Shown here: positions 1-53,546 of the stretch, one piece after another
Layout: each line of letters starts with the position of its first letter
Position numbering within the stretch: the first letter of the stretch is position 1
Assembly: GCA_903839725.1 (NCBI GenBank)
Contig: CAIMDG010000003.1
Span: 31,829-95,828, forward strand
DNA from: an uncultured bacterium
Lineage (GTDB): Bacteria > Patescibacteriota > Minisyncoccia > Phycocordibacterales > PALSA-1337
Length of the DNA stretch: 64,000 nucleotides
Direction: 5' to 3'
Translations under genes and position numbers: made by a program
The notes under the pieces: generated by a model
Told to the model about the DNA's origin: nothing
Database searches by the model: none
What the model saw: only the letters and a program-made list of their open reading frames with translations

Positions 1-1512
1 ACTCTCTATGCAATTTTTGCAACAAAAGAAAGTAAGAAGTCCCGTATTATTTCCGGCTCTATTATTATTCTTATTATCCTTGCAGGAATTATATTCTGGC
101 AAAATCGTCCCGATCATTTCATCAAGAATAATCAGCCACTCAACAGTCTTGCTACATATATCCAAAATCACGAAGTCCTGAATCGACTCGCAACTATTTC
201 GTGGGAAGATAACAAGACTCAAGCCCGCGGGTATATCTGGCCGATGGCAATAAAGGGGGGAATGGAACGCCCACTCTTTGGTTGGGGTCAAGAAAATTTC
301 AACTATATCTTTAATGCAAACTATGAACCAAAGATGTGGTCACAGGAACAATGGTTTGATCGTGCTCACAGTGTGTTTATAGACTGGTTTGTCGCTTCCG
401 GACTTATTGGTTTGATCGCATATCTTGCATTGTATGTTCTTTTCATTGTTGCTGTATGGCGTTCAAAGATAACAGTTGCTGAGAAAAGTGTATTGACTGG
501 TTTGATTGTGGGGTATGCAGTGCACAACGTATTCGTGTTTGATAACATTGCGAGTTATGTGATGTTCTTTATTATGTTGTCGTGTGCCCATGCTTTGAAT
601 GTTGGTACACCTATCAAATTCCTTGGCACCAAAGAAGTTGGTAATGATGCCGCTGAATATATAGTCGCACCAGTGGCAATCATTGCATTGGTCGTAGTTG
701 TATATTTCTTCGTGCTTCGTCCAGCCCAAGCTAACACTGCACTGATTGCCGCATTACAGTCATGTGGTAGTGATAAACCTGACGTCACGTTGTTCCAAAA
801 TGTATTTGAACTCAATCAGTACACAGCAAACCAAGAATCTCGTGAGCAGCTTATAAATTGTGCAGGACAAATTGTTGCGAAGCAGCAAATTCCTGGTCCT
901 ACTAAACAAGCATTTTCTCAGTTGGCTATGAAGGAGATTCAGGCTCAAATAACTGCAACTCCGCAAGATGCACGTATATATGTCCTTGCAGGAGGAATGT
1001 TGGATAGTATTGGACAGACACAAGAGGCTCAAGTCATATTGGAAAACGCCCATAGACTTACTCCACGTAAACAAGGTGTCATGTTTGAGCTTGCAAATAA
1101 TTATGTTAACAGTGGAAAAACTAATGAAGCAGTTGCATTACTCAAGCAAGCATATGAGCTTGATCCAACGTATCCAGAAGCTCAGGTAGTATATGCCACA
1201 GTCTTAATCATTGCAGGTAAGGAAGATGAGGCGCGTACATTGTTCAAGAGTGATCCTGCTATGTTTGAGACTGTTCGTATGGCGCAAATATACACGTCTG
1301 TCAAAAAATATGACAAGGCTATAGCGATTTATACCAAATTTGTTGCTGCAAGTTCGACTGATGTACAAGCCAAGGTTCAGCTTGCCCAAGTCCAGTTTGC
1401 TGCAGGAATGAAATGGGCAGCCACACAGACTCTCGGTGCTATTATCAAGGATCATCCAGAATTGAAAGATCAGGTTGATGCTGCGATAAAACAGATACAA
1501 TCATCGAAATAG
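1..1512 (+). CDS. O-antigen ligase (Wzy_C)-family polytopic membrane protein with C-terminal TPR repeats; 5' end lies outside the window (frame 1 is open from nt 1)
   Basis: Motif RGYIWPMAIKGGMERPLFGWGQENF matches the Wzy_C/WaaL/PglL loop signature. Several TM helices precede it and multiple TPR-like repeats (AxxxYxxA periodicity) fill the C-terminal ~250 aa. No stop in frame 1 between nt 1 and 244. Confidence 0.6.
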   Translation, partial: TLYAIFATKESKKSRIISGSIIILIILAGIIFWQNRPDHFIKNNQPLNSLATYIQNHEVLNRLATISWEDNKTQARGYIWPMAIKGGMERPLFGWGQENFNYIFNANYEPKMWSQEQWFDRAHSVFIDWFVASGLIGLIAYLALYVLFIVAVWRSKITVAEKSVLTGLIVGYAVHNVFVFDNIASYVMFFIMLSCAHALNVGTPIKFLGTKEVGNDAAEYIVAPVAIIALVVVVYFFVLRPAQANTALIAALQSCGSDKPDVTLFQNVFELNQYTANQESREQLINCAGQIVAKQQIPGPTKQAFSQLAMKEIQAQITATPQDARIYVLAGGMLDSIGQTQEAQVILENAHRLTPRKQGVMFELANNYVNSGKTNEAVALLKQAYELDPTYPEAQVVYATVLIIAGKEDEARTLFKSDPAMFETVRMAQIYTSVKKYDKAIAIYTKFVAASSTDVQAKVQLAQVQFAAGMKWAATQTLGAIIKDHPELKDQVDAAIKQIQSSK

Positions 1513-1567: not shown

Positions 1568-1729
1568 ATGTGATAAACACATGTTACGCCGACTGATGGC
1601 GAGCGAGTGTGAGCTCCAAATAAAAATGTTTAAATTTTATGAGTACATTCGCCCGCCGTCACTTGGAGCAATCTGGTGTAATTATAACGTGTAAGGTATT
1701 CAGAAAACAAGACGCACAAGATACGTGTT

Positions 1730-1839
1730 GAGATGCATTATCACCCAATAGGGTTTTCTTCCGTCGCCTGCGGGCGCTGATCGCTGGCTACCCATCCTCG
1801 GCGCACTTTAGAAAACCCTATTGGGTGATAATGCATCTC
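1730..1839. repeat. Long palindromic element: 29-bp perfect inverted arms (GAGATGCATTATCACCCAATAGGGTTTTC) around a GC-rich 52-nt core
   Basis: Read directly: arm 1730-1758 is the exact reverse complement of 1811-1839. The core 1759-1810 is ~65% GC against a ~38% GC background. Confidence 0.7.
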
Positions 1840-2054
1840 CTCGTACTTAACCATATTCATCCCCATCTTATTTTCTGAAAGTGACGCACGCCCCATCACG
1901 CAAAAGGCCGCCGAGGGCGGCACTTTGCGAAACATTTATTTTGGAGAGTGCCCACACGGGTACTCATGACAATATTATACCACATTAGGTTGTGATTACA
2001 ACACACATATTCACAGTTCTTGGTTCTTTGCGTGATTATTGCTAGAGTTAAGCT

Positions 2055-10498: not shown

Positions 10499-10616
10499 GC
10501 CCTACAGGAGGCATTGTACTTATTTTTGATACAAGTTTAGAGACACTTACATTACACCGCGTACCTCAATGTTTACAAACTTGTATCAAAAATAAGTACA
10601 ATGTCTCCTGTGGGGC
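10499..10616. repeat. PAL-A element copy A (core 10535-10580, same orientation as copy B)
   Basis: The conserved 46-nt core GTTTAGAGACAC(T/G)TACATTACACCGCGTACC(T/A)C(A/G)ATGTTTACAAAC is flanked by ~36-bp mutually complementary arms (two mismatches). Confidence 0.85.
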
Positions 10617-27107: not shown

Positions 27108-27126
27108 TTGGGAACATGCGACAGAA

Positions 27127-27243
27127 CCCCTCCACAACAGCCTGAATAAAACATCCGTGACGATATTAGATACGTGCCTGAAGAATAACGTAATGAGACG
27201 ATATCCCGCTGGGAATTGTTTTATTCAGGCTGTTGTGGAGAGG
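27127..27243. repeat. Long palindromic element: 24-bp perfect inverted arms (CCTCCACAACAGCCTGAATAAAACA) around a ~63-nt core containing a GACGATAT direct repeat
   Basis: Read directly: 27129-27153 against 27217-27240 (plus imperfect extensions). Confidence 0.7.
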
Positions 27244-27280
27244 TTCTTTACACTTGTTATATTTTATTGTAGGATTTGAT

Positions 27281-29019: not shown

Positions 29020-29028
29020 AAACGGTTT

Positions 29029-29066
29029 ATAAAAATCCCACATCAATAGAGATGTGGGATTTTTAT
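29029..29066 (+). terminator. Rho-independent terminator (15-bp perfect stem)
   Basis: ATAAAAATCCCACAT-CAATAGAG-ATGTGGGATTTTTAT. Confidence 0.65.
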
Positions 29067-29094
29067 ATACATTTAATAATGATAGAATACCTTC

Positions 29095-29862
29095 ATGTCA
29101 GACTATTACAATTCTCGCCGAACCAAATATCTCTTTGATCCAAAGAGCACAGAACCATTCAAAGTCAGTCGTTCAAAGATTGATCTATTCATGAATTGTC
29201 CGATGTGCTTTTATCTTGATTGTAGGCTTGGTGTAGGACGTCCACCAGGTTTTCCATTCGCGCTCAACTCGGCCGTAGATACTCTACTTAAGAAGGAGTT
29301 TGATATTCATCGTGCCAAGAAGCGCCCGCATCCTCTGATGCACGCATACGGCTTGAAAGACGTGGTTCCGTTCATGCACGAAGACCTCGATATCTGGAGA
29401 AGTAACTTCAAGGGTATTCGATATGTCCATGAACCAAGTAATTTGTTGGTAACTGGTGCGGTTGATGATGTGTGGGTTGATTCAAAAGGGGAATTGATGA
29501 TCGTTGATTATAAGTCGACAAGCAAAGAAGAAAAGGTGAATCTCGACAAAGAATGGCAGATTGGTTACAAGCGCCAGATGGAAGTATATCAATGGCTTTT
29601 TAGAAATAATGGTTTCAAGGTTTCTTCAACGGGATATTTTGTCTATTGCAACGGCAAAACTGATCGCGAAGCATTCGATGCGAAACTCGAGTTTGATATA
29701 GATGTTATTCCATACACAGGAGATTGTTCATGGGTAGATGAAGTATTGCCCAACATTCGTGCGTGCCTCATGGCCCCAAAACCACCAAAGCCTTCACCTG
29801 TGTGTGATTATTGTTCATATAGAAAATCTTCACGAGATGTACAGGTTGATATCAAGAAATAA
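29095..29862 (+). CDS. PD-(D/E)XK nuclease family protein with Cas4/AddB-like cysteine clusters
   Basis: A D...(I/V)VDYK motif (GAVDDVWVD...LMIVDYKST), an N-terminal CPMCFYLDC and a C-terminal CDYCSYRK. Confidence 0.65.
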   Translation: MSDYYNSRRTKYLFDPKSTEPFKVSRSKIDLFMNCPMCFYLDCRLGVGRPPGFPFALNSAVDTLLKKEFDIHRAKKRPHPLMHAYGLKDVVPFMHEDLDIWRSNFKGIRYVHEPSNLLVTGAVDDVWVDSKGELMIVDYKSTSKEEKVNLDKEWQIGYKRQMEVYQWLFRNNGFKVSSTGYFVYCNGKTDREAFDAKLEFDIDVIPYTGDCSWVDEVLPNIRACLMAPKPPKPSPVCDYCSYRKSSRDVQVDIKK

Positions 29863-33127: not shown

Positions 33128-33140
33128 GCGTTGGAAATAT

Positions 33141-33166
33141 AAAATCCCCCTTTAAAGGGGGATTTT
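33141..33166. terminator. Bidirectional terminator (perfect 13-bp palindrome AAAATCCCCCTTT/AAAGGGGGATTTT)
   Basis: Directly after the nrdJ stop. Confidence 0.65.
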
Positions 33167-33233
33167 GTATTGTAGGGGAGTGATTGACATTGAAAGCCTA
33201 AAACTATACTGTTTCCTTAGATCCCTAACAATT

Positions 33234-38479: not shown

Positions 38480-38614
38480 AGGTAAGATATGAGAAAATTT
38501 TGGTCTCGATGTGGGTCTGAAGTACGTTAGAATGTAGAAAAATTCTGGTCTCGATTTAGCTTTGGCTACGCCAAAGCTAAATCTCGATCCGAATTTTCTT
38601 AGGAGAGAAAATTC
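38470..38614 (+). promoter_or_regulatory. tRNA leader module copy 1: tandem ~42-nt repeat each ending AAAATT(T/C)TGGTCTCGAT, a 13-bp hairpin (loop TAC), CTCGATCCGAATTTT, then AAATTC immediately 5' of tRNA-Gly
   Basis: Read directly. The same ordered modules recur upstream of tRNA-Thr at 53321-53429. Confidence 0.6.
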
Positions 38615-38685
38615 GCGGGTGTGGTTTAGTGGCAGGACGCGACCTTCCCAAGGTTGAGGCCCGAGTTCGATTCTCGGCACCCGCA
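38615..38685 (+). tRNA. tRNA-Gly (anticodon CCC)
   Basis: Cloverleaf by hand. Acceptor GCGGGTG/CACCCGC, anticodon stem CGACC/GGTTG with loop TTCCCAA, T-arm CCGAG-TTCGATT-CTCGG, discriminator A. CCA is not encoded. Confidence 0.9.
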
Positions 38686-38862
38686 CAATGATCCGTAAGG
38701 ACTGCTAAACGCAGTCCGAGCGGAGCATCATTGCGACGAGGTGCCGAGAATCGAACGCCGGAACGTGCGAGCTCTAGCAAGAGCGAGCCGTGAGGCGGTG
38801 CCCAGACCGAGCCGAACTGGTGAGGCGAGAGTCGCGGGCGATTCTCGGCACCCGCACACAAA
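38686..38862. repeat. GC-rich ~150-bp segment carrying an inverted copy (38730-38746) and a direct 20-nt copy (38843-38862, CGATTCTCGGCACCCGCACA) of the tRNA-Gly T-arm/3' end. It looks like an att site or integration/excision scar, or a tRNA-derived MITE
   Basis: Read directly. GC ~60% against a ~38% background. The antisense track ORFs 38372..38686 and 38577..38873 are artefacts. Confidence 0.5.
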
Positions 38863-39243: not shown

Positions 39244-40521
39244 TTGGCATTCATGGGATATACACATATTTTCTCGGTCATTGTTAGCCATGTCGAAGCT
39301 ATTATTCTTGCAGGAGGGTATCCCTTTTTGTTTTTGACGGTTCTATTGGAAGGTTTGCCACTTATTGGTACCGTAGTTCCTGGCCACGTCACCATCATTG
39401 CAGGAGGCTTCTTGGCGAGAATTGGCATATTGAATATTTGGTGGGTACTTGGCCTCGCTATTGCAGCTGCTATTCTCGGTGATTTTATTGGATTTAGTTT
39501 GGGTCGTAAATACGGCATGCCCCTCATTGATCGTCTACGTAAGTATTTTTTTATCAAAGATTCTCATATTGCCAAAGTTAACAATTTGCTCGCAAAACAT
39601 ACTGGTAAAGCAATGATTATTGGACGATTCAGTCCGCTTACGAGAGCATTGATGCCTTTTATTGTTGGTACAAGTAAAACTCACGTCAATCGTTTTTGGC
39701 TTTTTAATATTATCGGCGCAGTGAGCTGGATAGGTCTGTCAGTATTGCTCGGATATGCATTTGGGGCTGGATATCATGCGATTGCGGGATATTTTGGTAA
39801 AGTTGTTCTCGTCGCTCTCATTGCAGCAATATTGATAATTTGGGGGTACCGTTTCGTGAATGTTCGTTTTCATATTTTTAGAAGATATGAATTATTTGTG
39901 CTCGGACTCAACCTTGTGGCATTGTATGAACTCGCAAGAATGGTCCAGGATAGAATAAGCGCGAATTCATTCATGGCTAATTTTGATATTTGGGTAAATG
40001 TATTCATGAGTACACACATAACACCTTTACTACAGACATGTGCTACATGGATAAGTGCAGCTACTGATATTGCACCTATGGCTTCGATTGCGATTATTGT
40101 GTCAGCTATCTTTGCTTTGAAACAGAAGTGGCGTTCATCGGCTATTATGTTTTTATCTATTGGTCTGACTGCCTTTTTTGTGGGGTTTATGAAAGTATTT
40201 TTTGCGAGTGCACGACCAGACAATGCACTTCAGTTTCTTACGGATTATAGTTTTCCAAGTGGCCATAGTGCAGTCGCCGCAGCATTTTTCATGATTGTGG
40301 CATATCTTGCAGCTTCAAAAATAAAATCATGGGTATGGCGTGAATTGATCATGGTGGGTTGTGTCGGAGCAGTCATCGTTGTCGGGTTGTCACGATTGGT
40401 TTTGAATGTTCACTGGGCATCTGATGTCATTGCTGGTTGGGCACTTGGTATATTCTTGGCGACAGCTTCTATCTTGTTTGTACGGTATGTTGCAGGAATT
40501 ATATTGCGCAAAGTTGAATAA
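39244..40521 (+). CDS. Fusion protein: DedA/VTT-family membrane domain plus PAP2 phosphatase (undecaprenyl-diphosphatase/PgpB-like)
   Basis: The N-terminal half has the DedA signature (GYPFLFLTVLLEGLPLIGTVVPGHVTIIAGGFLA). The C-terminal half has PAP2 motifs KVFFASARPDN, PSGHS and SRLVLNVHWASDVIAG. Confidence 0.7.
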   Translation: MAFMGYTHIFSVIVSHVEAIILAGGYPFLFLTVLLEGLPLIGTVVPGHVTIIAGGFLARIGILNIWWVLGLAIAAAILGDFIGFSLGRKYGMPLIDRLRKYFFIKDSHIAKVNNLLAKHTGKAMIIGRFSPLTRALMPFIVGTSKTHVNRFWLFNIIGAVSWIGLSVLLGYAFGAGYHAIAGYFGKVVLVALIAAILIIWGYRFVNVRFHIFRRYELFVLGLNLVALYELARMVQDRISANSFMANFDIWVNVFMSTHITPLLQTCATWISAATDIAPMASIAIIVSAIFALKQKWRSSAIMFLSIGLTAFFVGFMKVFFASARPDNALQFLTDYSFPSGHSAVAAAFFMIVAYLAASKIKSWVWRELIMVGCVGAVIVVGLSRLVLNVHWASDVIAGWALGIFLATASILFVRYVAGIILRKVE

Positions 40522-40522
40522 A

Positions 40523-40558
40523 AAAGAGTCGAACATGTATTTGTTCGACTCTTTTTTA
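40523..40558. terminator. Bidirectional terminator between convergent genes
   Basis: AAAAAAGAGTCGAACA-TGTATTT-GTTCGACTCTTTTTT. Confidence 0.7.
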
Positions 40559-40565
40559 TTAATTA

Positions 40566-45924: not shown

Positions 45925-46050
45925 CGAACACAGGAGGAACTGTGCATACTCATTTTCCACAGAAGTTTAGAGACACGTACATTACACCGCGTACCACGAT
46001 GTTTACAAACTTCTGTGGAAAATGAGTATGCACAGTTCCTCCTGTGTTCG
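45925..46050. repeat. PAL-A element copy B (core 45965-46010; arms a perfect 40-bp complement)
   Basis: Read directly. The track ORF start at 46022 lies inside this element. Confidence 0.9.
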
Positions 46051-46081
46051 CCCCTCAAAACGATATGGTATAATTATCCCC

Positions 46082-48874
46082 ATGAACGCGCCTCGCTTTG
46101 AGCAGCAGACAAAAACCGAAACACCGGAGCAAGAACTTTCTCGTATTCGTGAAGTTGCTTCGAAACATGTTGAAACTTCTCGTGAAAGTGGTATTGAAAT
46201 AAGTCCACGCACTGCTACCCATGAAGTCGTCAAAGCATATGCCGATACGATCACCAGTGAGGTATTGCATCCTAACTACGCTCTTGAGCACAAGGAAGTT
46301 GAAGCTATTACATTACAACTATCTCCGGAACCTCATGATAAACAAATAGAACAACTCCTCGGCATTATGGAAGAAAAGGGTATTAAGAATGCCTTGAATG
46401 TTGCCATGAAGATGAAAAATCCTCATTTACTTGATGATTTTTTTCGTGTACTCGTACAATGCGTTGCTTCCGGTTTTCCTATTCATGGACTTACAGAATC
46501 TGATCCACTCTGGAGACCGCTTCACATGACCCTATTCGAAGTCAGTCTTCCTGAGACATCAGAAGATGACAAGAAGAAACAGCTCAAAGAATTGATTTCG
46601 GGCATGCAGCAATTTTATGCTGGCATGATGACTGTATCCTCAGATGCGTGGTTCACTATTGAAATTGCAAATTCAAATGGAAGCGAAGAATCCATCTTCT
46701 ATGTTTCGGTGCCGACGATTCACGAAGAATTGTTCGAAAAACAAATTATTTCAATCTTTCCTGACGCTACACTTCGTGAGCATAAAAATGATTACAATAT
46801 TTTCAATGAATCAGGAATTTCGGTTGGTTCATATGCGACACTCGCCAAGCATCCACTATATCCGCTCAAACCTTACGAAGAGTTTGATGTCGATCCACTT
46901 AACTCACTATTAAGTAGTTTTTCAAAGATAAATAAAGACGGCGAAGGAGCCGCAATACAACTTGTTATTGGTGACAAGAGAGATACGTATGCCAAACAAG
47001 GCGCCAAAGTGCTCGAAAAGATTCGCAAGGGTGAAAAAGTCAAAGATGCACTGAGTGATGTGTACAGTGGTATTGCTCGTACATTTTTTAAAGAAGTTGG
47101 GTACATGTTCAAGAGTCAGGAAAAAATTGATAAGGAAAAAAGTGAGAAAGAAAAGCGTGCAAGTGCAGTCGATCAGATATCGATTGATCAATTTACAGAA
47201 AAATTGAAGTCACCATTTGTGTCAGTGAATATCCGTATCGTTGCATCAGCAGCAACTGTTGATGAATCAACTGGTCTGTTGCTCGATTTGCAATCAAGTT
47301 TCCATCAGTTCGAGAATGGTCACGGCAATGCCTTGAATTGGAAAGCGGTTAGTCCAGCTGTGTTGCCGGATTTCTTGGAAGAATTTTCATTGCGTACGTT
47401 CAGTAAAGAAGAAGAGATTATTCTCAGTCTCAAGGAAATGACAACATGTATCCATTTCCCAGCTTCTACTGTCGGTCGTGCCGCACCTGGTCTCAAGCAG
47501 AGCAAGGCCGGTACATCTCCTGTTCCTTTGGAAATTTCGAAACAAGGAACACTTATTGGTTTGAATAAACATCGCGGTGTTGAGTCAAAGGTATATATTG
47601 CCCCTGAGGATCGTATGCGTCACTTCTATGTGATCGGTCAAACTGGTACCGGTAAAACTGGCTTGCTCAAAAATATGATTGTTCAAGATATCCAAGCAGG
47701 ACACGGTGTCTGTTTCATCGATCCACACGGTTCGGATATTATGGATATTTTGGCGAATATTCCGCCAGAACGTTATGAAGATGTTATCTATTTTGATCCC
47801 GCATCTGTTGATCGTCCGATGGCACTTAATATGCTCGAGTATGATCGCTCATCTCCTGAGCAGAAGACATTCGTGGTCAATGAAATGTTTAGTATATTCC
47901 AGAAGCTCTACGGGGCTACACCTGAGTCCATGGGTCCAATGTTCGAACAATATTTCCGTAACGCTACGATGTTGGTGATCGAGGATCCTGATACTGGTTG
48001 TACATTGCTCGACGTATCTCGTGTTATGTCGAACAAAGCATTTCGTGATTTGAAGATAGCCAATTGTAAGAACCCGGTTATCGTTCAATTCTGGAAAGAG
48101 ATTGCCGAAAAAGCTGGAGGTGAAGCATCTCTTGCAAATATTGTGCCATATATCGTTTCAAAGTTCGACGTCTTCTTGGCGAATGAAATCATGCGACCAA
48201 TCATTGCTCAAGAAAAGTCATCATTCAATATGCGTGACGTGATGGATAATAAAAAGATTTTGCTCGTGAATCTCGCAAAGGGAAGACTCGGCGATATCAA
48301 CTCACATTTGATTGGTCTTATTCTCGTCGGAAAAATTTTGATGGCAGCATTGTCACGTGTTGATTCATTTGGTAAGCCAATGTCTGATTTCTTCTTGTAT
48401 TTGGACGAGTTCCAGAATATCACCACTGATTCGATCGCTACGATTCTTTCTGAAGCTCGTAAGTATCGTTTGTCGATGACTATCGCGCACCAATTCGTTG
48501 CACAACTCGAAGATAAGATCAAAGATGCTGTATTCGGTAACGTCGGTTCGATGGCGGTATTCCGTGTAGGTACCGAAGATGCTGAATTCTTCGAAAAACA
48601 GTTTACGCCAACATTCAAGCAGAACGACATCATCAATCTCGACAATCGTAATGCCTATGTGCGCCTATTGTCTGGTGGACGTCCAACCAAACCGTTCAAT
48701 ATTGTGACTGTGCAAGCAGAAAAAGGTGATCCAGCTCAAGTAGACAAGTTGAAAGAACTCTCATCATTGATTTTTGGTAGACCACGCGCTGAGGTTGAAG
48801 AAGAAGTCATGAAGAAGTACAATTCTATGAAGAAGCCGTTGGCTATACCAGAAGTGCCTCTTGCTAGAAAATAA
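46082..48874 (+). CDS. TraD/VirD4-like (TrwB/TraG family) P-loop NTPase with a ~500-aa N-terminal domain of unknown function
   Basis: Walker A YVIGQTGTGKTG, then FIDPHGSDIMD and a Walker B-like FFLYLDEFQNI, resembling T4SS coupling-protein/DUF87-type ATPases. Start chosen at MNAPRFEQ, downstream of PAL-A copy B. Confidence 0.5.
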   Translation: MNAPRFEQQTKTETPEQELSRIREVASKHVETSRESGIEISPRTATHEVVKAYADTITSEVLHPNYALEHKEVEAITLQLSPEPHDKQIEQLLGIMEEKGIKNALNVAMKMKNPHLLDDFFRVLVQCVASGFPIHGLTESDPLWRPLHMTLFEVSLPETSEDDKKKQLKELISGMQQFYAGMMTVSSDAWFTIEIANSNGSEESIFYVSVPTIHEELFEKQIISIFPDATLREHKNDYNIFNESGISVGSYATLAKHPLYPLKPYEEFDVDPLNSLLSSFSKINKDGEGAAIQLVIGDKRDTYAKQGAKVLEKIRKGEKVKDALSDVYSGIARTFFKEVGYMFKSQEKIDKEKSEKEKRASAVDQISIDQFTEKLKSPFVSVNIRIVASAATVDESTGLLLDLQSSFHQFENGHGNALNWKAVSPAVLPDFLEEFSLRTFSKEEEIILSLKEMTTCIHFPASTVGRAAPGLKQSKAGTSPVPLEISKQGTLIGLNKHRGVESKVYIAPEDRMRHFYVIGQTGTGKTGLLKNMIVQDIQAGHGVCFIDPHGSDIMDILANIPPERYEDVIYFDPASVDRPMALNMLEYDRSSPEQKTFVVNEMFSIFQKLYGATPESMGPMFEQYFRNATMLVIEDPDTGCTLLDVSRVMSNKAFRDLKIANCKNPVIVQFWKEIAEKAGGEASLANIVPYIVSKFDVFLANEIMRPIIAQEKSSFNMRDVMDNKKILLVNLAKGRLGDINSHLIGLILVGKILMAALSRVDSFGKPMSDFFLYLDEFQNITTDSIATILSEARKYRLSMTIAHQFVAQLEDKIKDAVFGNVGSMAVFRVGTEDAEFFEKQFTPTFKQNDIINLDNRNAYVRLLSGGRPTKPFNIVTVQAEKGDPAQVDKLKELSSLIFGRPRAEVEEEVMKKYNSMKKPLAIPEVPLARK

Positions 48875-48903
48875 AGCGTTTTATACATAATCAATTAAAT
48901 TTT

Positions 48904-49482
48904 ATGACTATTGAAGACCAGCAAAATAGTATTGAAGGTGAAGTAGCAATTCTTTCCTTGCAAGCAATACAAGCATCATTGGAAAGCGGTAAACCTATCG
49001 AGGTCAAAGTTAAACGTTCTGATGGCAAGATTGAATCGGGGTGGAGTATCGTGCAAATGTTTTTGGGCGAAGGGGATGAACCAGTAAAAGTGAAAGTCGT
49101 TGGTGAATCTGGTTCAAAGATTGTCTCGCTTGATAGTGTACAAAAATGGAATAATCCGGAAGAGGTTCCAAGAGGAAAGGAAGCTATCCTTACTCCAGAA
49201 TCGATCCATGATTTACTCGGAAAAAATCAAGACATAGAAGTGAGTGTCAAACGTTCTTCTGGTGAAATAGAGCCAGGATGGAAGGTTACCGATCTATATG
49301 TTGGGGTTGGCAATGAACCAGTAAGAGTTAAAGTTGTGAACGGTCTAGCATCAAAAATTGTTTCACTTAATGATTTGAAGGAATGGAACATTCAAGATGA
49401 AATTGATAATGCTGAAGAACGACCGGCACGTGACTTTAATGTTCGTCCACCAACTGAAGGAGAAATAAATAGGGGAGTATAA
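48904..49482 (+). CDS. Hypothetical protein with a tandem-duplicated ~70-aa domain
   Basis: The internal repeat IEVKVKRSDGKIESGWSIVQMFLGEGDEPVKVKVVGESGSKIVSLDSVQKWN aligns with IEVSVKRSSGEIEPGWKVTDLYVGVGNEPVRVKVVNGLASKIVSLNDLKEWN. Confidence 0.5.
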   Translation: MTIEDQQNSIEGEVAILSLQAIQASLESGKPIEVKVKRSDGKIESGWSIVQMFLGEGDEPVKVKVVGESGSKIVSLDSVQKWNNPEEVPRGKEAILTPESIHDLLGKNQDIEVSVKRSSGEIEPGWKVTDLYVGVGNEPVRVKVVNGLASKIVSLNDLKEWNIQDEIDNAEERPARDFNVRPPTEGEINRGV

Positions 49483-49514
49483 TGAAGAATAAATAAGTTT
49501 GTATAAAAAAGTAC

Positions 49515-49545
49515 GGCGAGCAGGTTTTGAAGTCTGCTCGCCGGG
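49515..49545. terminator. Bidirectional terminator hairpin (GGCGAGCAG...CTGCTCGCC) between convergent genes
   Basis: Read directly. Confidence 0.5.
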
Positions 49546-49546
49546 G

Positions 49547-49795
49547 TTACAGTTTGTTGTGCAACCAAGTGCACAGTTCCGCGATTGTCTTAAGGACTCC
49601 CTTAAGAAACAGTCGCCCGATGTTGATTAGGCTCTTGAGGATCGGCTTTCCGATTTTCTTCAAGAATTTGAGTTCCCAATCAGCGATTTTCTTGCCTCTA
49701 CCTATCCCACACCCCCTGAGGACCAGTGCGAGGGCTACGGATATGAATAGCAGGGCAAGACCTGCTCGGACGAGTTCGGCGAAAAGAGCGTTCAT
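49547..49795 (-). CDS. Small cationic protein with one hydrophobic helix and Lys-rich amphipathic helices (holin- or bacteriocin-like features)
   Basis: AGLALLFISVALALVL is followed by KKIADWELKFLKKIGKPILKSLINIGRLFLKGVLKTI. Confidence 0.3.
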   Translation of the reverse strand: MNALFAELVRAGLALLFISVALALVLRGCGIGRGKKIADWELKFLKKIGKPILKSLINIGRLFLKGVLKTIAELCTWLHNKL

Positions 49796-49867
49796 TTGGT
49801 AAAATTATAGCATATTATATATGCTATTGTCAATCTCCATATTTTAGATTAAATATATAGGGTTTTT

Positions 49868-50000
49868 GGGAGCAGACTCCACAGGAGGTGCTGTACTCAT
49901 TTTCTGCACAAGTTTGTAAACATTGTGGTACGCGGTGTAATGTACATGTCTCTAAACTTGTGCAGAAAATGAGTACAGCACCTCCTGTAGGGTCTGCTTC
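49868..50000. repeat. PAL-A element copy C (core 49912-49957, inverted relative to copies A and B)
   Basis: Read directly. Ends 19 nt before the 3' end of the MFS gene. Confidence 0.9.
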
Positions 50001-50018
50001 AACTGACTAATATGGAAA

Positions 50019-51188
50019 TTATTTTACCTCCTTCATCGTCATGATCGGATAGATGGCGACAAAACAGAATAGACCGACGAGTACGAATACATATTCATGT
50101 GTAGTGAACATGAGACCGATGCCGGTAATAAGAGGTGCTAGAAAATATGAAATAGGACGAGTGATGCGGAATGCACCAAGAATAGGAGCATCCTTTAGAG
50201 AAACTTTTTTAAAGAAATATGATTCGATCATAATCTCTGCACTCGCTGCACCGACGCGAGTTATGAATAGGAAGATTGCCCATATGATGACACTTTTGGC
50301 AGTGATGAGGGCGAGTGCGATCGTTGATATACCCATGATTATAAAACCCCATGACATGATTTTCTTTTCACCGATCTTGTCAGACATGACACCGAGAGGA
50401 TATTGGATGAGTGGAAATGGGATAAGCATGATAACGAGAATGATACCGATGTCTTCCCAGGTGAATCCAATAACTGTATTCAAATAAATAGGACTGTAAA
50501 TAACCATCCATGCATAAAATGTCTGAAGGATGGTGTTCACTGAAAACAGTCTGACCCAATTTGCATCTGAACCGATATGTCTCACGAGTTGTAATGGAGA
50601 TGGGTGGTCATACTTTGGATCCTTGAATCGAGGAAAGTTGCGATATATAAGGTATAGAAGTGGGAAAAGCATCGCTAATGCTGCTACGTATGTATTGTGG
50701 TAGTTATAGTTACCATTGATGAGCATTGTTCCGAGTAGAGGTGCAATAACCCATGAAGCATTGAGAGTTGCAGTATATAGACCACGGATTTTCCCGACAT
50801 GAATACCATCCGTATAGGCTTCAAGGAATAAGTCGAGTGTAAATCCTATAAGTGAGACAACGGCATATTGTAGTATAAAGGCTATGACAATGATTGTTGG
50901 ATCTGATGCAGTTATGAGAACCCATAGAAGTAGTATCTGTATACATACAAGCCACAATGAGGCTGTATAATTGCCCACGCGGCGAATCATGTGTGGGGTA
51001 AAAAGAAAACCGAGTATTGAAAGAGCAGAACCAATCATGTAGATAAACCCAACAGTTCGTTCGTCGGCAAAGAGAGAGAGGAAACTTGAGTTCGAATACA
51101 TCGGTATGACCAGATGCAATGTATAGATAAAACCAATGATAGCGATTGTATAAATAATGTGACTTCGGGGGATTCGTGGAGTAGACAT
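50019..51188 (-). CDS. MFS transporter
   Basis: 12 TM helices with the MFS loop motif between TM2 and TM3 (GFLFTPHMIRRVG). Confidence 0.75.
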   Translation of the reverse strand: MSTPRIPRSHIIYTIAIIGFIYTLHLVIPMYSNSSFLSLFADERTVGFIYMIGSALSILGFLFTPHMIRRVGNYTASLWLVCIQILLLWVLITASDPTIIVIAFILQYAVVSLIGFTLDLFLEAYTDGIHVGKIRGLYTATLNASWVIAPLLGTMLINGNYNYHNTYVAALAMLFPLLYLIYRNFPRFKDPKYDHPSPLQLVRHIGSDANWVRLFSVNTILQTFYAWMVIYSPIYLNTVIGFTWEDIGIILVIMLIPFPLIQYPLGVMSDKIGEKKIMSWGFIIMGISTIALALITAKSVIIWAIFLFITRVGAASAEIMIESYFFKKVSLKDAPILGAFRITRPISYFLAPLITGIGLMFTTHEYVFVLVGLFCFVAIYPIMTMKEVK

Positions 51189-51206
51189 GAGAATAGTATA
51201 TCAGAG

Positions 51207-51338
51207 TATCAAAACCGTGGCAGGGGTGTGTACTCATTTTCTGCATAGGTTTGTAAACATTGAGGTACGCGGTGTAATGTACGTGTCTCTAAACTTATGC
51301 AGAAAATGAGTACACACCCCTGCCACGGTTTTGAGATA
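51207..51338. repeat. PAL-A element copy D (core 51249-51294, same orientation as copy C)
   Basis: Read directly. Begins 19 nt beyond the MFS start codon. Confidence 0.9.
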
Positions 51339-53320: not shown

Positions 53321-53429
53321 TAGGGAAAATCTGGTCTCGCTTTCCCTGGGAGAGGAAATTCTGGTCTCGTCTTCATCATTGCTTACGCAATAATGAAGAC
53401 TCGATCCGAATTTCGCAAAGCCGAAATTC
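53321..53429 (+). promoter_or_regulatory. tRNA leader module copy 2: GGGAAAATCTGGTCTCG, GAGGAAATTCTGGTCTCG, a 14-bp hairpin (loop TTAC), TCGATCCGAATTTC, then GAAATTC immediately 5' of tRNA-Thr
   Basis: Same order and spacing as the module upstream of tRNA-Gly. Confidence 0.6.
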
Positions 53430-53502
53430 GCCACCTTAGCTCAGTTGGTAGAGCAACGCTTTTGTAAAGCGAAGGTCCCCAGTTCAAGTCTGGGAGGTGG
53501 CT
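53430..53502 (+). tRNA. tRNA-Thr (anticodon TGT)
   Basis: Cloverleaf by hand. Acceptor GCCACCT/AGGTGGC, D-arm GCTC-AGTTGGTA-GAGC, anticodon loop TTTGTAA, T-arm CCCAG-TTCAAGT-CTGGG, discriminator T. Confidence 0.9.
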
Positions 53503-53546
53503 CAGAAACAAATACTTTTAAGTAGCCCGTATGTTAAAATGGCTAC

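Follow-up and report, generated by a model that had tools for sequence, protein, structure and literature searches.

PAL-A, a small family of palindromic DNA modules centered in locus-specific intergenic hairpins of a Patescibacteria lineage

ERIC (IRU), YPAL, and Correia (NEMIS) elements are imperfect palindromes of ~100-170 bp found in enterobacteria, Yersinia, and Neisseria. Their presence or absence varies between strains, and cotranscription with neighboring genes is likely. ERIC elements are described as having a conserved central inverted repeat; Correia elements have an IHF site, show a TA duplication, and are delimited by terminal repeats of 26 bp. In the attC sites of integrons, the R″ and R′ boxes at the outer ends are conserved, and the sites lie in same-orientation cassette arrays with intI nearby. 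Genomes of the Candidate Phyla Radiation (CPR; Patescibacteria) are small and usually described as repeat-poor. REPINs are hairpin-forming doublets of REP (repetitive extragenic palindromic) sequences, in which compensatory changes across the hairpin are common, the 16-mer ends are invariant, and the spacer is variable (PMC3116915). REPINs are mobilized by RAYT transposases, and irregular hairpins are recognized by IS200/IS605-type enzymes (PMC3333891). Insertion sequences (IS) such as IS1397, ISKpn1, IS621/IS110-family members, and others insert into REP palindromes (PMC1525189). CPR bacteria also contain TIGR stem-loop arrays, which are tandem, lie beside a Tas gene (encoding a Nop-domain protein), and have variable palindromic stems around a loop with two variable spacers between box C/D motifs (PMC12045711). 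Here, a palindromic element designated PAL-A is described, which is present in four copies in a 64-kb stretch of DNA from an uncultured member of the Patescibacteriota (contig CAIMDG010000003.1; this whole stretch of 64,000 nt is referred to as the window). With somewhat better than even confidence, PAL-A is taken to be a young family of noncoding, dispersed palindromic DNA modules, resembling miniature inverted-repeat transposable elements (MITEs) or REPINs, that are centered in older local palindromes. It has the look of DNA that is selfish or unstable, not of an RNA gene under selection.

The initial annotation had listed four hairpins, which were all found where it had placed them after trimming of the start of copy C (to 49869) and the end of copy D (to 51336; Table 1). 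The copies are 118-132 nt long, contain no open reading frame (ORF), and are all intergenic, as gene and ORF positions bear out. Each is a long inverted repeat with arms of 47-53 nt, which are 89-94% complementary when the imperfect inner part is counted. A single hairpin fold was obtained for every copy, irrespective of the strand, with fold energies of -66 to -91 kcal/mol as RNA (z = -12.7 to -17.4) and of -53 to -54 kcal/mol as DNA (z = -14 to -17). An 18-mer from the PAL-A center (GGTACGCGGTGTAATGTA) occurs four times in the window compared with 0.03 expected occurrences, and none of 100 shuffles reached this number. The strand of the asymmetric core confirms that B and C are inverted relative to each other and that C and D are direct. 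The copies had been placed 15-40 nt from gene ends; the measured distances (13-56 nt) roughly agree, and the 19 nt proposed for C and D relative to either end of the major facilitator superfamily (MFS) transporter gene were measured at both, but copy D lies upstream of both its neighbors.

Table 1. Positions and surroundings of the PAL-A copies and of other long hairpins; L numbers denote compared sequences of relatives, all other positions refer to the window.
Feature	Position	Core strand	Structure	Surroundings
PAL-A copy A	10499-10616	-	118 nt; module 10517-10598; locus-specific outer arms 10499-10516 and 10599-10616	between gatB (+) and a MerR-family gene (-), whose 3′ ends lie 40 and 37 nt away
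PAL-A copy B	45925-46050	-	126 nt; ~44 bp perfect stem; module 45947-46028	between glutaredoxin gene end and VirD4/TraG-like gene start, at 13 and ~32 nt
PAL-A copy C	49869-50000	+	132 nt; module 49894-49975; 46-nt core 49912-49957	19 nt past 3′ end of MFS transporter gene (-)
PAL-A copy D	51207-51336	+	130 nt; module 51231-51312	between divergent starts of MFS gene (-), at 19 nt, and rpsB (+), at 56 nt
Long hairpin, non-PAL-A	1727-1842		stem ~30-38 bp, loop 40-50 nt	upstream of murB
Long hairpin, non-PAL-A	27121-27249		stem 31-33 bp, loop 63 nt; single copy in sequences compared	
PAL-B hairpin	L159 1363-1491			
PAL-B hairpin	L020/L021/L022 ~460-592			
Other long-stem, large-loop hairpin	L154 2157-2297			
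Other long-stem, large-loop hairpin	L157 12148-12274			
Other long-stem, large-loop hairpin	L029 10482-10602			

As judged from the alignment of the copies, the PAL-A unit is narrower than previously described, namely, an 82-nt module and not the whole hairpin. This module (82-86 nt across PAL-A) runs from TAC to GTA, its pairwise identity between copies is 83-98% (mean 0.90), and its edge, TG/TA...TA/CA (slashes marking the boundaries), is sharp in all PAL-A copies. It contains perfect inner inverted repeats of ~22 bp (TACTCATTTTCTGCACAAGTTT and AAACTTGTGCAGAAAATGAGTA) and an imperfect box pair (GTTTGTAAACA and TGTCTCTAAAC) with two conserved mismatches and one G-T. The 46-nt core of the initial annotation is indeed nearly identical at its center, but the stem runs on into it and leaves an unpaired tip of only ~22-24 nt (stems ~50 bp and tip ~22 nt in PAL-A). 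That the center is more conserved than the stem, that is, a conserved loop on a variable stem, was correctly recognized at the outset; the loops are ~90-98% identical. The arms had been considered homologous between copies, which holds true within the module but not for the outer ~20 nt. The 20 nt outside the module in each arm show an inter-copy identity of 0.58-0.59 compared with 0.53-0.56 for unrelated flanks in the same alignment and are, therefore, locus-specific. Within one copy, these outer nucleotides are complementary at 16-20 of 20 positions. A CAGGAGG/CCTCCTG block just outside the module is common to copies A, B, and C. The module is situated at the exact center of a longer palindrome, the outer part of which is particular to each locus. 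The interior is bracketed by TA...TA in every PAL-A copy, and also in a variant module found in L009, yet this TA belongs to the palindrome.

Covariation was assessed in an alignment of 10 distinct members, the seven known PAL-A copies and three diverged members at site D (the spacer occupied by copy D) of relatives. Standard pairs were found in 98.4% of its 440 cells, and 31 of the 45 pairs had changed on both sides. This corresponds to 96 doubly changed cells, compared with 26 ± 4 in shuffles, none of which (0 of 500) reached 96; when, as a control, the partner was slid by 1-3 columns, pairing was only 32-55%. Thus, differences between arms are mirrored in the opposite arm, just as the initial annotation had stated. 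Among the ~400 long-stem cells only four variable G-U and two A-C cells were present, plus one invariant G-T beside the tip, and the 10-member alignment showed no strand bias of wobble pairs. Because an A-C cell is a G-U pair on the other strand, the stems are Watson-Crick on both strands. PAL-A stems lack the wobble intermediates and the strand bias usual for selected RNA. Replication template switching homogenizes the arms of inverted repeats, inverts the spacer, and extends perfect stems (PMC8604942, PMC8794818, PMC13100816), and it yields compensatory-looking covariation without selection (PMC8794818). Of the two explanations offered earlier for the mirrored arms, templating of one arm from the other fits better, and a selected RNA hairpin fits less well, because the stems are nearly purely Watson-Crick on both strands, orthologous copies at B and D have the core in opposite orientations, and a half copy has been retained.

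PAL-A modules are gained, lost, swapped, and inverted between close relatives. Syntenic loci were obtained via close homologues of RpsB and GatB, proteins that place the window in Patescibacteria (CPR; the closest named proteins are from metagenome-assembled genomes of Paceibacterota, Parcubacteria, and Taylorbacteria, with an identity of 73-77% in the case of RpsB). At site D, L009 has outer arms identical to those of the window over ~25 nt per side, which enclose a wholly different palindromic interior of ~80 nt; this module has little sequence in common with PAL-A at its edges and was confirmed in an independent assembly (L159). In L020, L021, L022, and L027, the outer arms at D are orthologous with mirrored changes, the box pair and tip are inverted and ~65% similar to PAL-A, and TA is absent from the junction. 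In L031 and L032, site D is a 62-nt spacer without a hairpin. Copy C is present in the strain represented by L009 and L159 (~91% DNA identity), with substitutions mirrored in both arms; it is absent from the species of L020 and L021, where the site is ~160-170 nt shorter and contains a short terminator-like hairpin followed by a T-run. Site B of L020 and L021 is occupied by a 44-nt simple, terminator-like hairpin (AAAAGGGGG...CCCCCTTTT in L020), which has only the basal CGAACAC/GTGTTCG in common with the window copy. In L159, only the left half of a PAL-A copy is present at B, with the box inverted relative to the window, and a 129-nt hairpin of another family occupies the former tip position. 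At site A, the interior is absent from L154 and L155, and only the basal stem sequences are kept on both sides (TCTCGCC.../...GGGCTG); another palindrome (CTCGGATGAA...TTCATCCGAG) lies outside these sequences, both at these loci and in the window. The equivalent spot in L157 is taken by a long hairpin of 116 nt that is unrelated. At A and B, either a small hairpin may have received an insertion or a large one may have lost its center. The core orientation is uniform within each species (five assemblies and the window for D; six assemblies for the L020 type). Orientation relative to transcription can be judged from B and C alone, and it differs between orthologous copies.

Three other readings of these loci were rejected. 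B and C had been noted to bracket a ~3.8-kb segment; they do not behave as the ends of a mobile unit, and neither a B-C composite transposon nor a C-D cassette is tenable, since relatives without those copies have the same gene order. An assembly artefact or chimera does not apply, as assemblies made independently in different projects contain the same structures, the unusual module at D of L009 among them. That the outer arms are inverted copies of the local flank made upon insertion is unsupported: the empty D site of L031 does not resemble the outer arms, and, at A and B, relatives already have both basal arm halves.

The region around copy C has peculiarities of its own. The stretch between the VirD4/TraG-like and MFS genes (48904-49802 in the window, with equivalents in L020, L029, and L031) carries variable cargo and appears to be a variable hot spot. 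In the window, it encodes a repeat protein of 192 amino acids plus a small ORF; its counterpart in L020 encodes a protein of 415 amino acids, that in L031 a PemK-type toxin, and that in L029 a nucleotidyltransferase along with other products. The ORF at 49547-49795 (-) is faced by a sequence at 49804-49833 (-) that matches a sigma-70-type promoter perfectly (TTGACA, 18 nt, TG-TATAAT). For this reason, the small gene beside copy C is probably this minus-strand ORF, as called in relatives, rather than the plus-strand ORF at 49527-49802.

In total, seven distinct PAL-A loci were found in the sequence compared (~316 kb, window included). Scans of larger collections required exact matches to the 18-mer. 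Among 185,579 species-representative genomes, two matches were obtained, both by chance (in unrelated GC-rich or coding contexts), whereas three of the 12 matches in metagenome contigs were real (L004, L006, and L009 of metagenome Ga0194062); these copies are also intergenic. In viral contigs, neither the exact 18-mer nor the gapped box-pair pattern matched (0 each), and the matches to the 15-mer inner repeat, more than 120 in number, were all due to chance, none having a palindromic partner. No match of copy C to plasmids and phages was obtained by blastn. Contigs begin inside the element in L009/L160, L015, L016, L017, L023, L024, L025, and L028, and one further record starts 65 nt before rpsB, which suggests the usual behavior of a multicopy or population-polymorphic repeat. 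The four copies in the window, the three in one metagenome, and the contigs of several independent assemblies breaking inside the element substantiate the earlier claim of a true dispersed family.

The layout of PAL-A is not restricted to PAL-A. The initial annotation had singled out the conserved loop on a variable stem as distinctive, but an unrelated hairpin family, termed PAL-B, has the same arrangement: a 63-nt segment comprising the loop and its closing part is 96.8% identical between site B of L159 and a position downstream of enolase in L020, that is, in two species, at two loci, and in opposite orientations, and the 40-bp arms have diverged. Further hairpins with long stems and large loops (Table 1) occur in a given lineage but are missing from the next or have a different counterpart there. 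Such turnover was seen in the gatB/merR spacer, upstream of murB, and downstream of enolase. The hairpin upstream of murB is nested in a degenerate outer palindrome, and L154 has a different hairpin there; this variable portion lies between two ultra-conserved blocks. Hence, the combination of conserved loop and variable stem is a property of a class. What looked like a hairpin between rpsB and tsf in L021-type contigs was not counted, as it overlaps conserved tsf coding sequence.

The blocks flanking the murB-upstream hairpin (1583-1700 and 1905-1990; ~2030-2150 and ~2330-2415 in L154) are ~98-100% identical compared with ~80% for other intergenic DNA. The first one folds as a hairpin (z ~ -5), neither matches Rfam, and both may represent regulatory sites or small RNAs that have escaped annotation. 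Ordinary gene-end hairpins at 33136-33171, 40515-40562, 1526-1567, and 29021-29074 consist of an A-run, a stem, and a T-run; they are (nearly) spacer-less palindromes, resemble bidirectional terminators, and may be the kind of site into which long hairpin modules insert.

If PAL-A is a dispersed module within older palindromes, it would spread by insertion or copying into the tip or center of existing intergenic hairpins, including terminator-like ones, whereby older palindrome layers would be pushed outward and then decay. Dispersal could be brought about by a trans-acting, hairpin-recognizing enzyme encoded elsewhere in the genome, or by hairpin-tip repair or gene conversion from other copies; repair of breaks at the tip from other copies would result in inter-copy identity falling from tip to base. 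Arm symmetry would be partly inherited from the palindromic targets and partly maintained by replication template switching between the arms, a process proposed because arm homogenization and spacer inversion are both seen at PAL-A. Any effect on the host would be secondary, for example, that of a hairpin at transcript ends in the case of copy C, which took the place of a short terminator.

Several observations weigh against such a module. No more than seven distinct loci are known, and no clean empty site (the same outer palindrome with nothing inside) was present among the relatives' loci compared. The linked transposase or HUH gene that the initial annotation had proposed looking for was not encountered: the 54 window ORFs scanned contained no transposase, HUH, recombinase/integrase, invertase, or Nop domain, and precomputed neighbor annotations of ~250 kb of relatives listed no mobility gene. 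A target-site duplication could not be demonstrated at the copies, as there is no direct repeat outside the hairpins and the TA is part of the palindrome. The positions of the box-pair mismatches and the G-T are the same in PAL-A and in the diverged L020-type member, although unrestricted arm-to-arm correction should erase them, which hints at some constraint on the core, related either to mobility or to the host. Conservation of the loops exceeds that of the stems even between species, which could mean function, and the recurrence of hairpins in the same spacers of different lineages is also predicted by selection for a hairpin.

The latter points lead to the first alternative to be weighed, which is unlikely: selected RNA hairpins that are cotranscribed and act as terminators devoid of a U-tract, as 3′ stabilizers, or as RNase III processing sites, their arms being shaped by compensatory evolution. 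The extreme fold stability on either strand is compatible with this, and so is the strong covariation, although template switching gives the same covariation without selection (PMC8794818) and G-U pairs are nearly absent and not strand-biased. Three of the four copies lie just past the 3′ end of a gene; copy D, however, lies upstream of both neighbors. Copy C, for which such a function is most conceivable as a secondary role, stands in place of the short hairpin and T-run of relatives, a long hairpin of some kind occupies the gatB/merR spacer in three lineages, and the core is conserved including its asymmetric mismatches. Against this, close relatives with the same genes have empty sites or short hairpins, the core orientation relative to flanking genes flips at orthologous B and D, and L159 has retained a half copy. 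An intrinsic terminator has a short GC-rich stem, a small loop, and a U-tract at the 3′ end of a gene, which is not what is seen here: no T-run follows copies A-C, and a terminator scan gave nothing at the elements. The outer arms of copy D do end in an A-run and a T-run (A-run/GC stem ... GC stem/T-run), but copy D is located between two gene starts. With Rfam, only RNase P and two transfer RNAs (tRNAs) passed the gathering score in the window, with none at PAL-A; in E-value mode, the elements were hit only by sub-threshold models of miRNA precursors, which are generic long hairpins.

Next in plausibility, and likewise unlikely, is true transposition, a more specific version of the main reading, in which an enzyme encoded by a single-copy gene, either a REP/RAYT-like HUH Y1 protein or a TA-targeting IS630/Tc1-type DDE protein, moves the module into the tips or centers of palindromes. 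The sharp unit edge shared by all copies would be expected under this mechanism, and two different modules occupy exactly the same position within identical outer arms at D. Moreover, the imperfect sub-terminal box pair with its conserved irregularities is reminiscent of the hairpins recognized by IS200/IS605-type enzymes (PMC3333891); another hairpin is nested in the PAL-A tip at site B of L159, and IS elements are known to target palindromes (PMC1525189). Yet no such gene is present among the window ORFs (no Y1_Tnp/RAYT in the 54 scanned) or in the neighborhoods of relatives, the TA duplication is inseparable from the palindrome, and the L020-type member has no TA at the junction. In addition, several unrelated hairpin families would each need to be recognized.

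Doubtful, and ranking below both, is the possibility that PAL-A and its sister families represent a distinct kind of mobile DNA, short asymmetric "tip modules" that specifically enter the apex or center of existing hairpins, so that palindromes grow inside-out like tree rings, in genomes that otherwise contain hardly any repeats. Young, perfect layers would then be found inside and old, decaying ones outside, and a structure-specific enzyme of the host or of the element, rather than a recognizable transposase, would be responsible.

It is improbable that mobility plays no role at all, that is, that the hairpins arise locally by inverted duplication via template switching and that gene conversion keeps the PAL-A centers alike. 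Template switching can create and extend perfect stems, many hairpin families occur as single copies in the same genomes, inner parts have been replaced inside unchanged outer arms, and the identity between copies is highest at the tip and reaches background outward. Conversion requires prior homology, however, which leaves the first arrival at C and D (absent from relatives) unexplained; the L009 module at D shares little with PAL-A at the edges, and the contig breaks suggest more copies than a few converting residents need. A dedicated protein-recognized site (an invertible promoter switch, an attC-like site, or a solitary TIGR-type guide unit) is very improbable, for although an asymmetric segment between inverted repeats occurs in both orientations between species and the loops of TIGR arrays in CPR bacteria are likewise enclosed by palindromic stems that vary (PMC12045711), a single orientation is found per species across assemblies (at D, in five assemblies and the window; in six for the L020 type), the spacer is only 24-46 nt and has no promoter-like match inside the core, the scanned window ORFs have no recombinase, integrase, invertase, or Nop match (Tas may escape Pfam), the copies are not tandem but solitary and kilobases apart with near-identical loops instead of distinct spacers, and the outermost ends vary, where attC has its R boxes, with mixed orientations in a constant gene order.

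A few further features of the window lie apart from PAL-A. One motif of ~75 nt (38541-38614 and 53358-53429) precedes both tRNA genes, Gly-CCC (38615-38686) and Thr-TGT (53430-53503), and is also present at 2098-2174 of L006 and 3479-3556 of L009. Its flanks are conserved (AATTCTGGTCTCG ... CTCGATCCGAATTT ... GAAATTC), and the enclosed 13-bp hairpin varies yet stays complementary. This motif gave no match to Rfam and may be a tRNA leader, a promoter, or a processing element. The 3′ end of the tRNA-Gly gene (CGATTCTCGGCACCCGCACA; region 38667-38858) is found again as a direct repeat ~170 nt downstream (38839-38858) and as an inverted copy at 38740-38761, which looks like a small insertion or integration scar. 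Housekeeping genes surround a stand-alone gene for a PD-(D/E)XK/Cas4-like nuclease (29095-29862); neither a CRISPR array nor a further cas gene was noticed in the window.

Given the repeat-poor reputation of these genomes, it is worth recording that a single Paceibacteria-type lineage harbors several families of long intergenic hairpins with fast turnover. PAL-A elements break metagenome assemblies of this lineage. Strong covariation that coincides, as in PAL-A, with inversion of the spacer, exchange of modules, and strand-symmetric Watson-Crick pairing is what would be expected of templating at the DNA level and not of selection on an RNA, and covariation-based RNA discovery in metagenomes would misread elements of this kind. 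Should targeting of the hairpin apex prove true, a tractable system for the building, targeting, and tolerance of palindromes in minimal genomes would be at hand.

How PAL-A relates to described systems depends on which feature is compared. Like REPINs, it is ~100 nt long, intergenic, noncoding, composed of two inverted halves, and dispersed, and singlets or halves occur as relics. REPINs, however, have conserved ends (the invariant 16-mers at the base) and a variable spacer, whereas PAL-A has the opposite pattern, a conserved center on a locus-specific base; REPINs are mobilized by RAYT and reach hundreds of copies, compared with seven loci of PAL-A, no RAYT/Y1 in the scanned ORFs, and no sequence similarity. 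With ERIC, YPAL, and Correia elements, it has in common the size, the intergenic position, the long imperfect palindrome, the probable cotranscription with neighbors, and the strain-variable presence. Those elements belong to a different phylum, no sequence relation to them was found, and PAL-A lacks defined conserved termini; its palindromy runs into unique DNA, and orthologous sites differ in the identity or orientation of its center. Classical MITEs are likewise small, noncoding, multicopy, and dispersed, with inverted repeats, presence/absence polymorphism, and assembly breaks, but in PAL-A it is the interior (conservation being highest in the center) and not the terminal inverted repeats that is conserved, no target-site duplication is demonstrable, no parent IS with matching ends was found in the window or in the loci of relatives, and the apparent target is the center of an existing palindrome. 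The palindrome-targeting IS are similar in being mobile DNA that lands inside extragenic palindromes and gives rise to nested structures; they differ in being full IS with a transposase and known targets, while the inserted unit of PAL-A is itself a small hairpin. Template-switch evolution predicts the homogenized arms (multibase changes that look compensatory but have no intermediates), the spacer inversion, and the outward growth of perfect stems seen in PAL-A, but it is a mutational process, which alone leaves the dispersal of the 82-nt module and the conserved mismatches adjacent to the tip unexplained. In the way it works, PAL-A is closest to REPINs, to palindromes of the ERIC/Correia type, and to MITEs, but it is a member of none of them.

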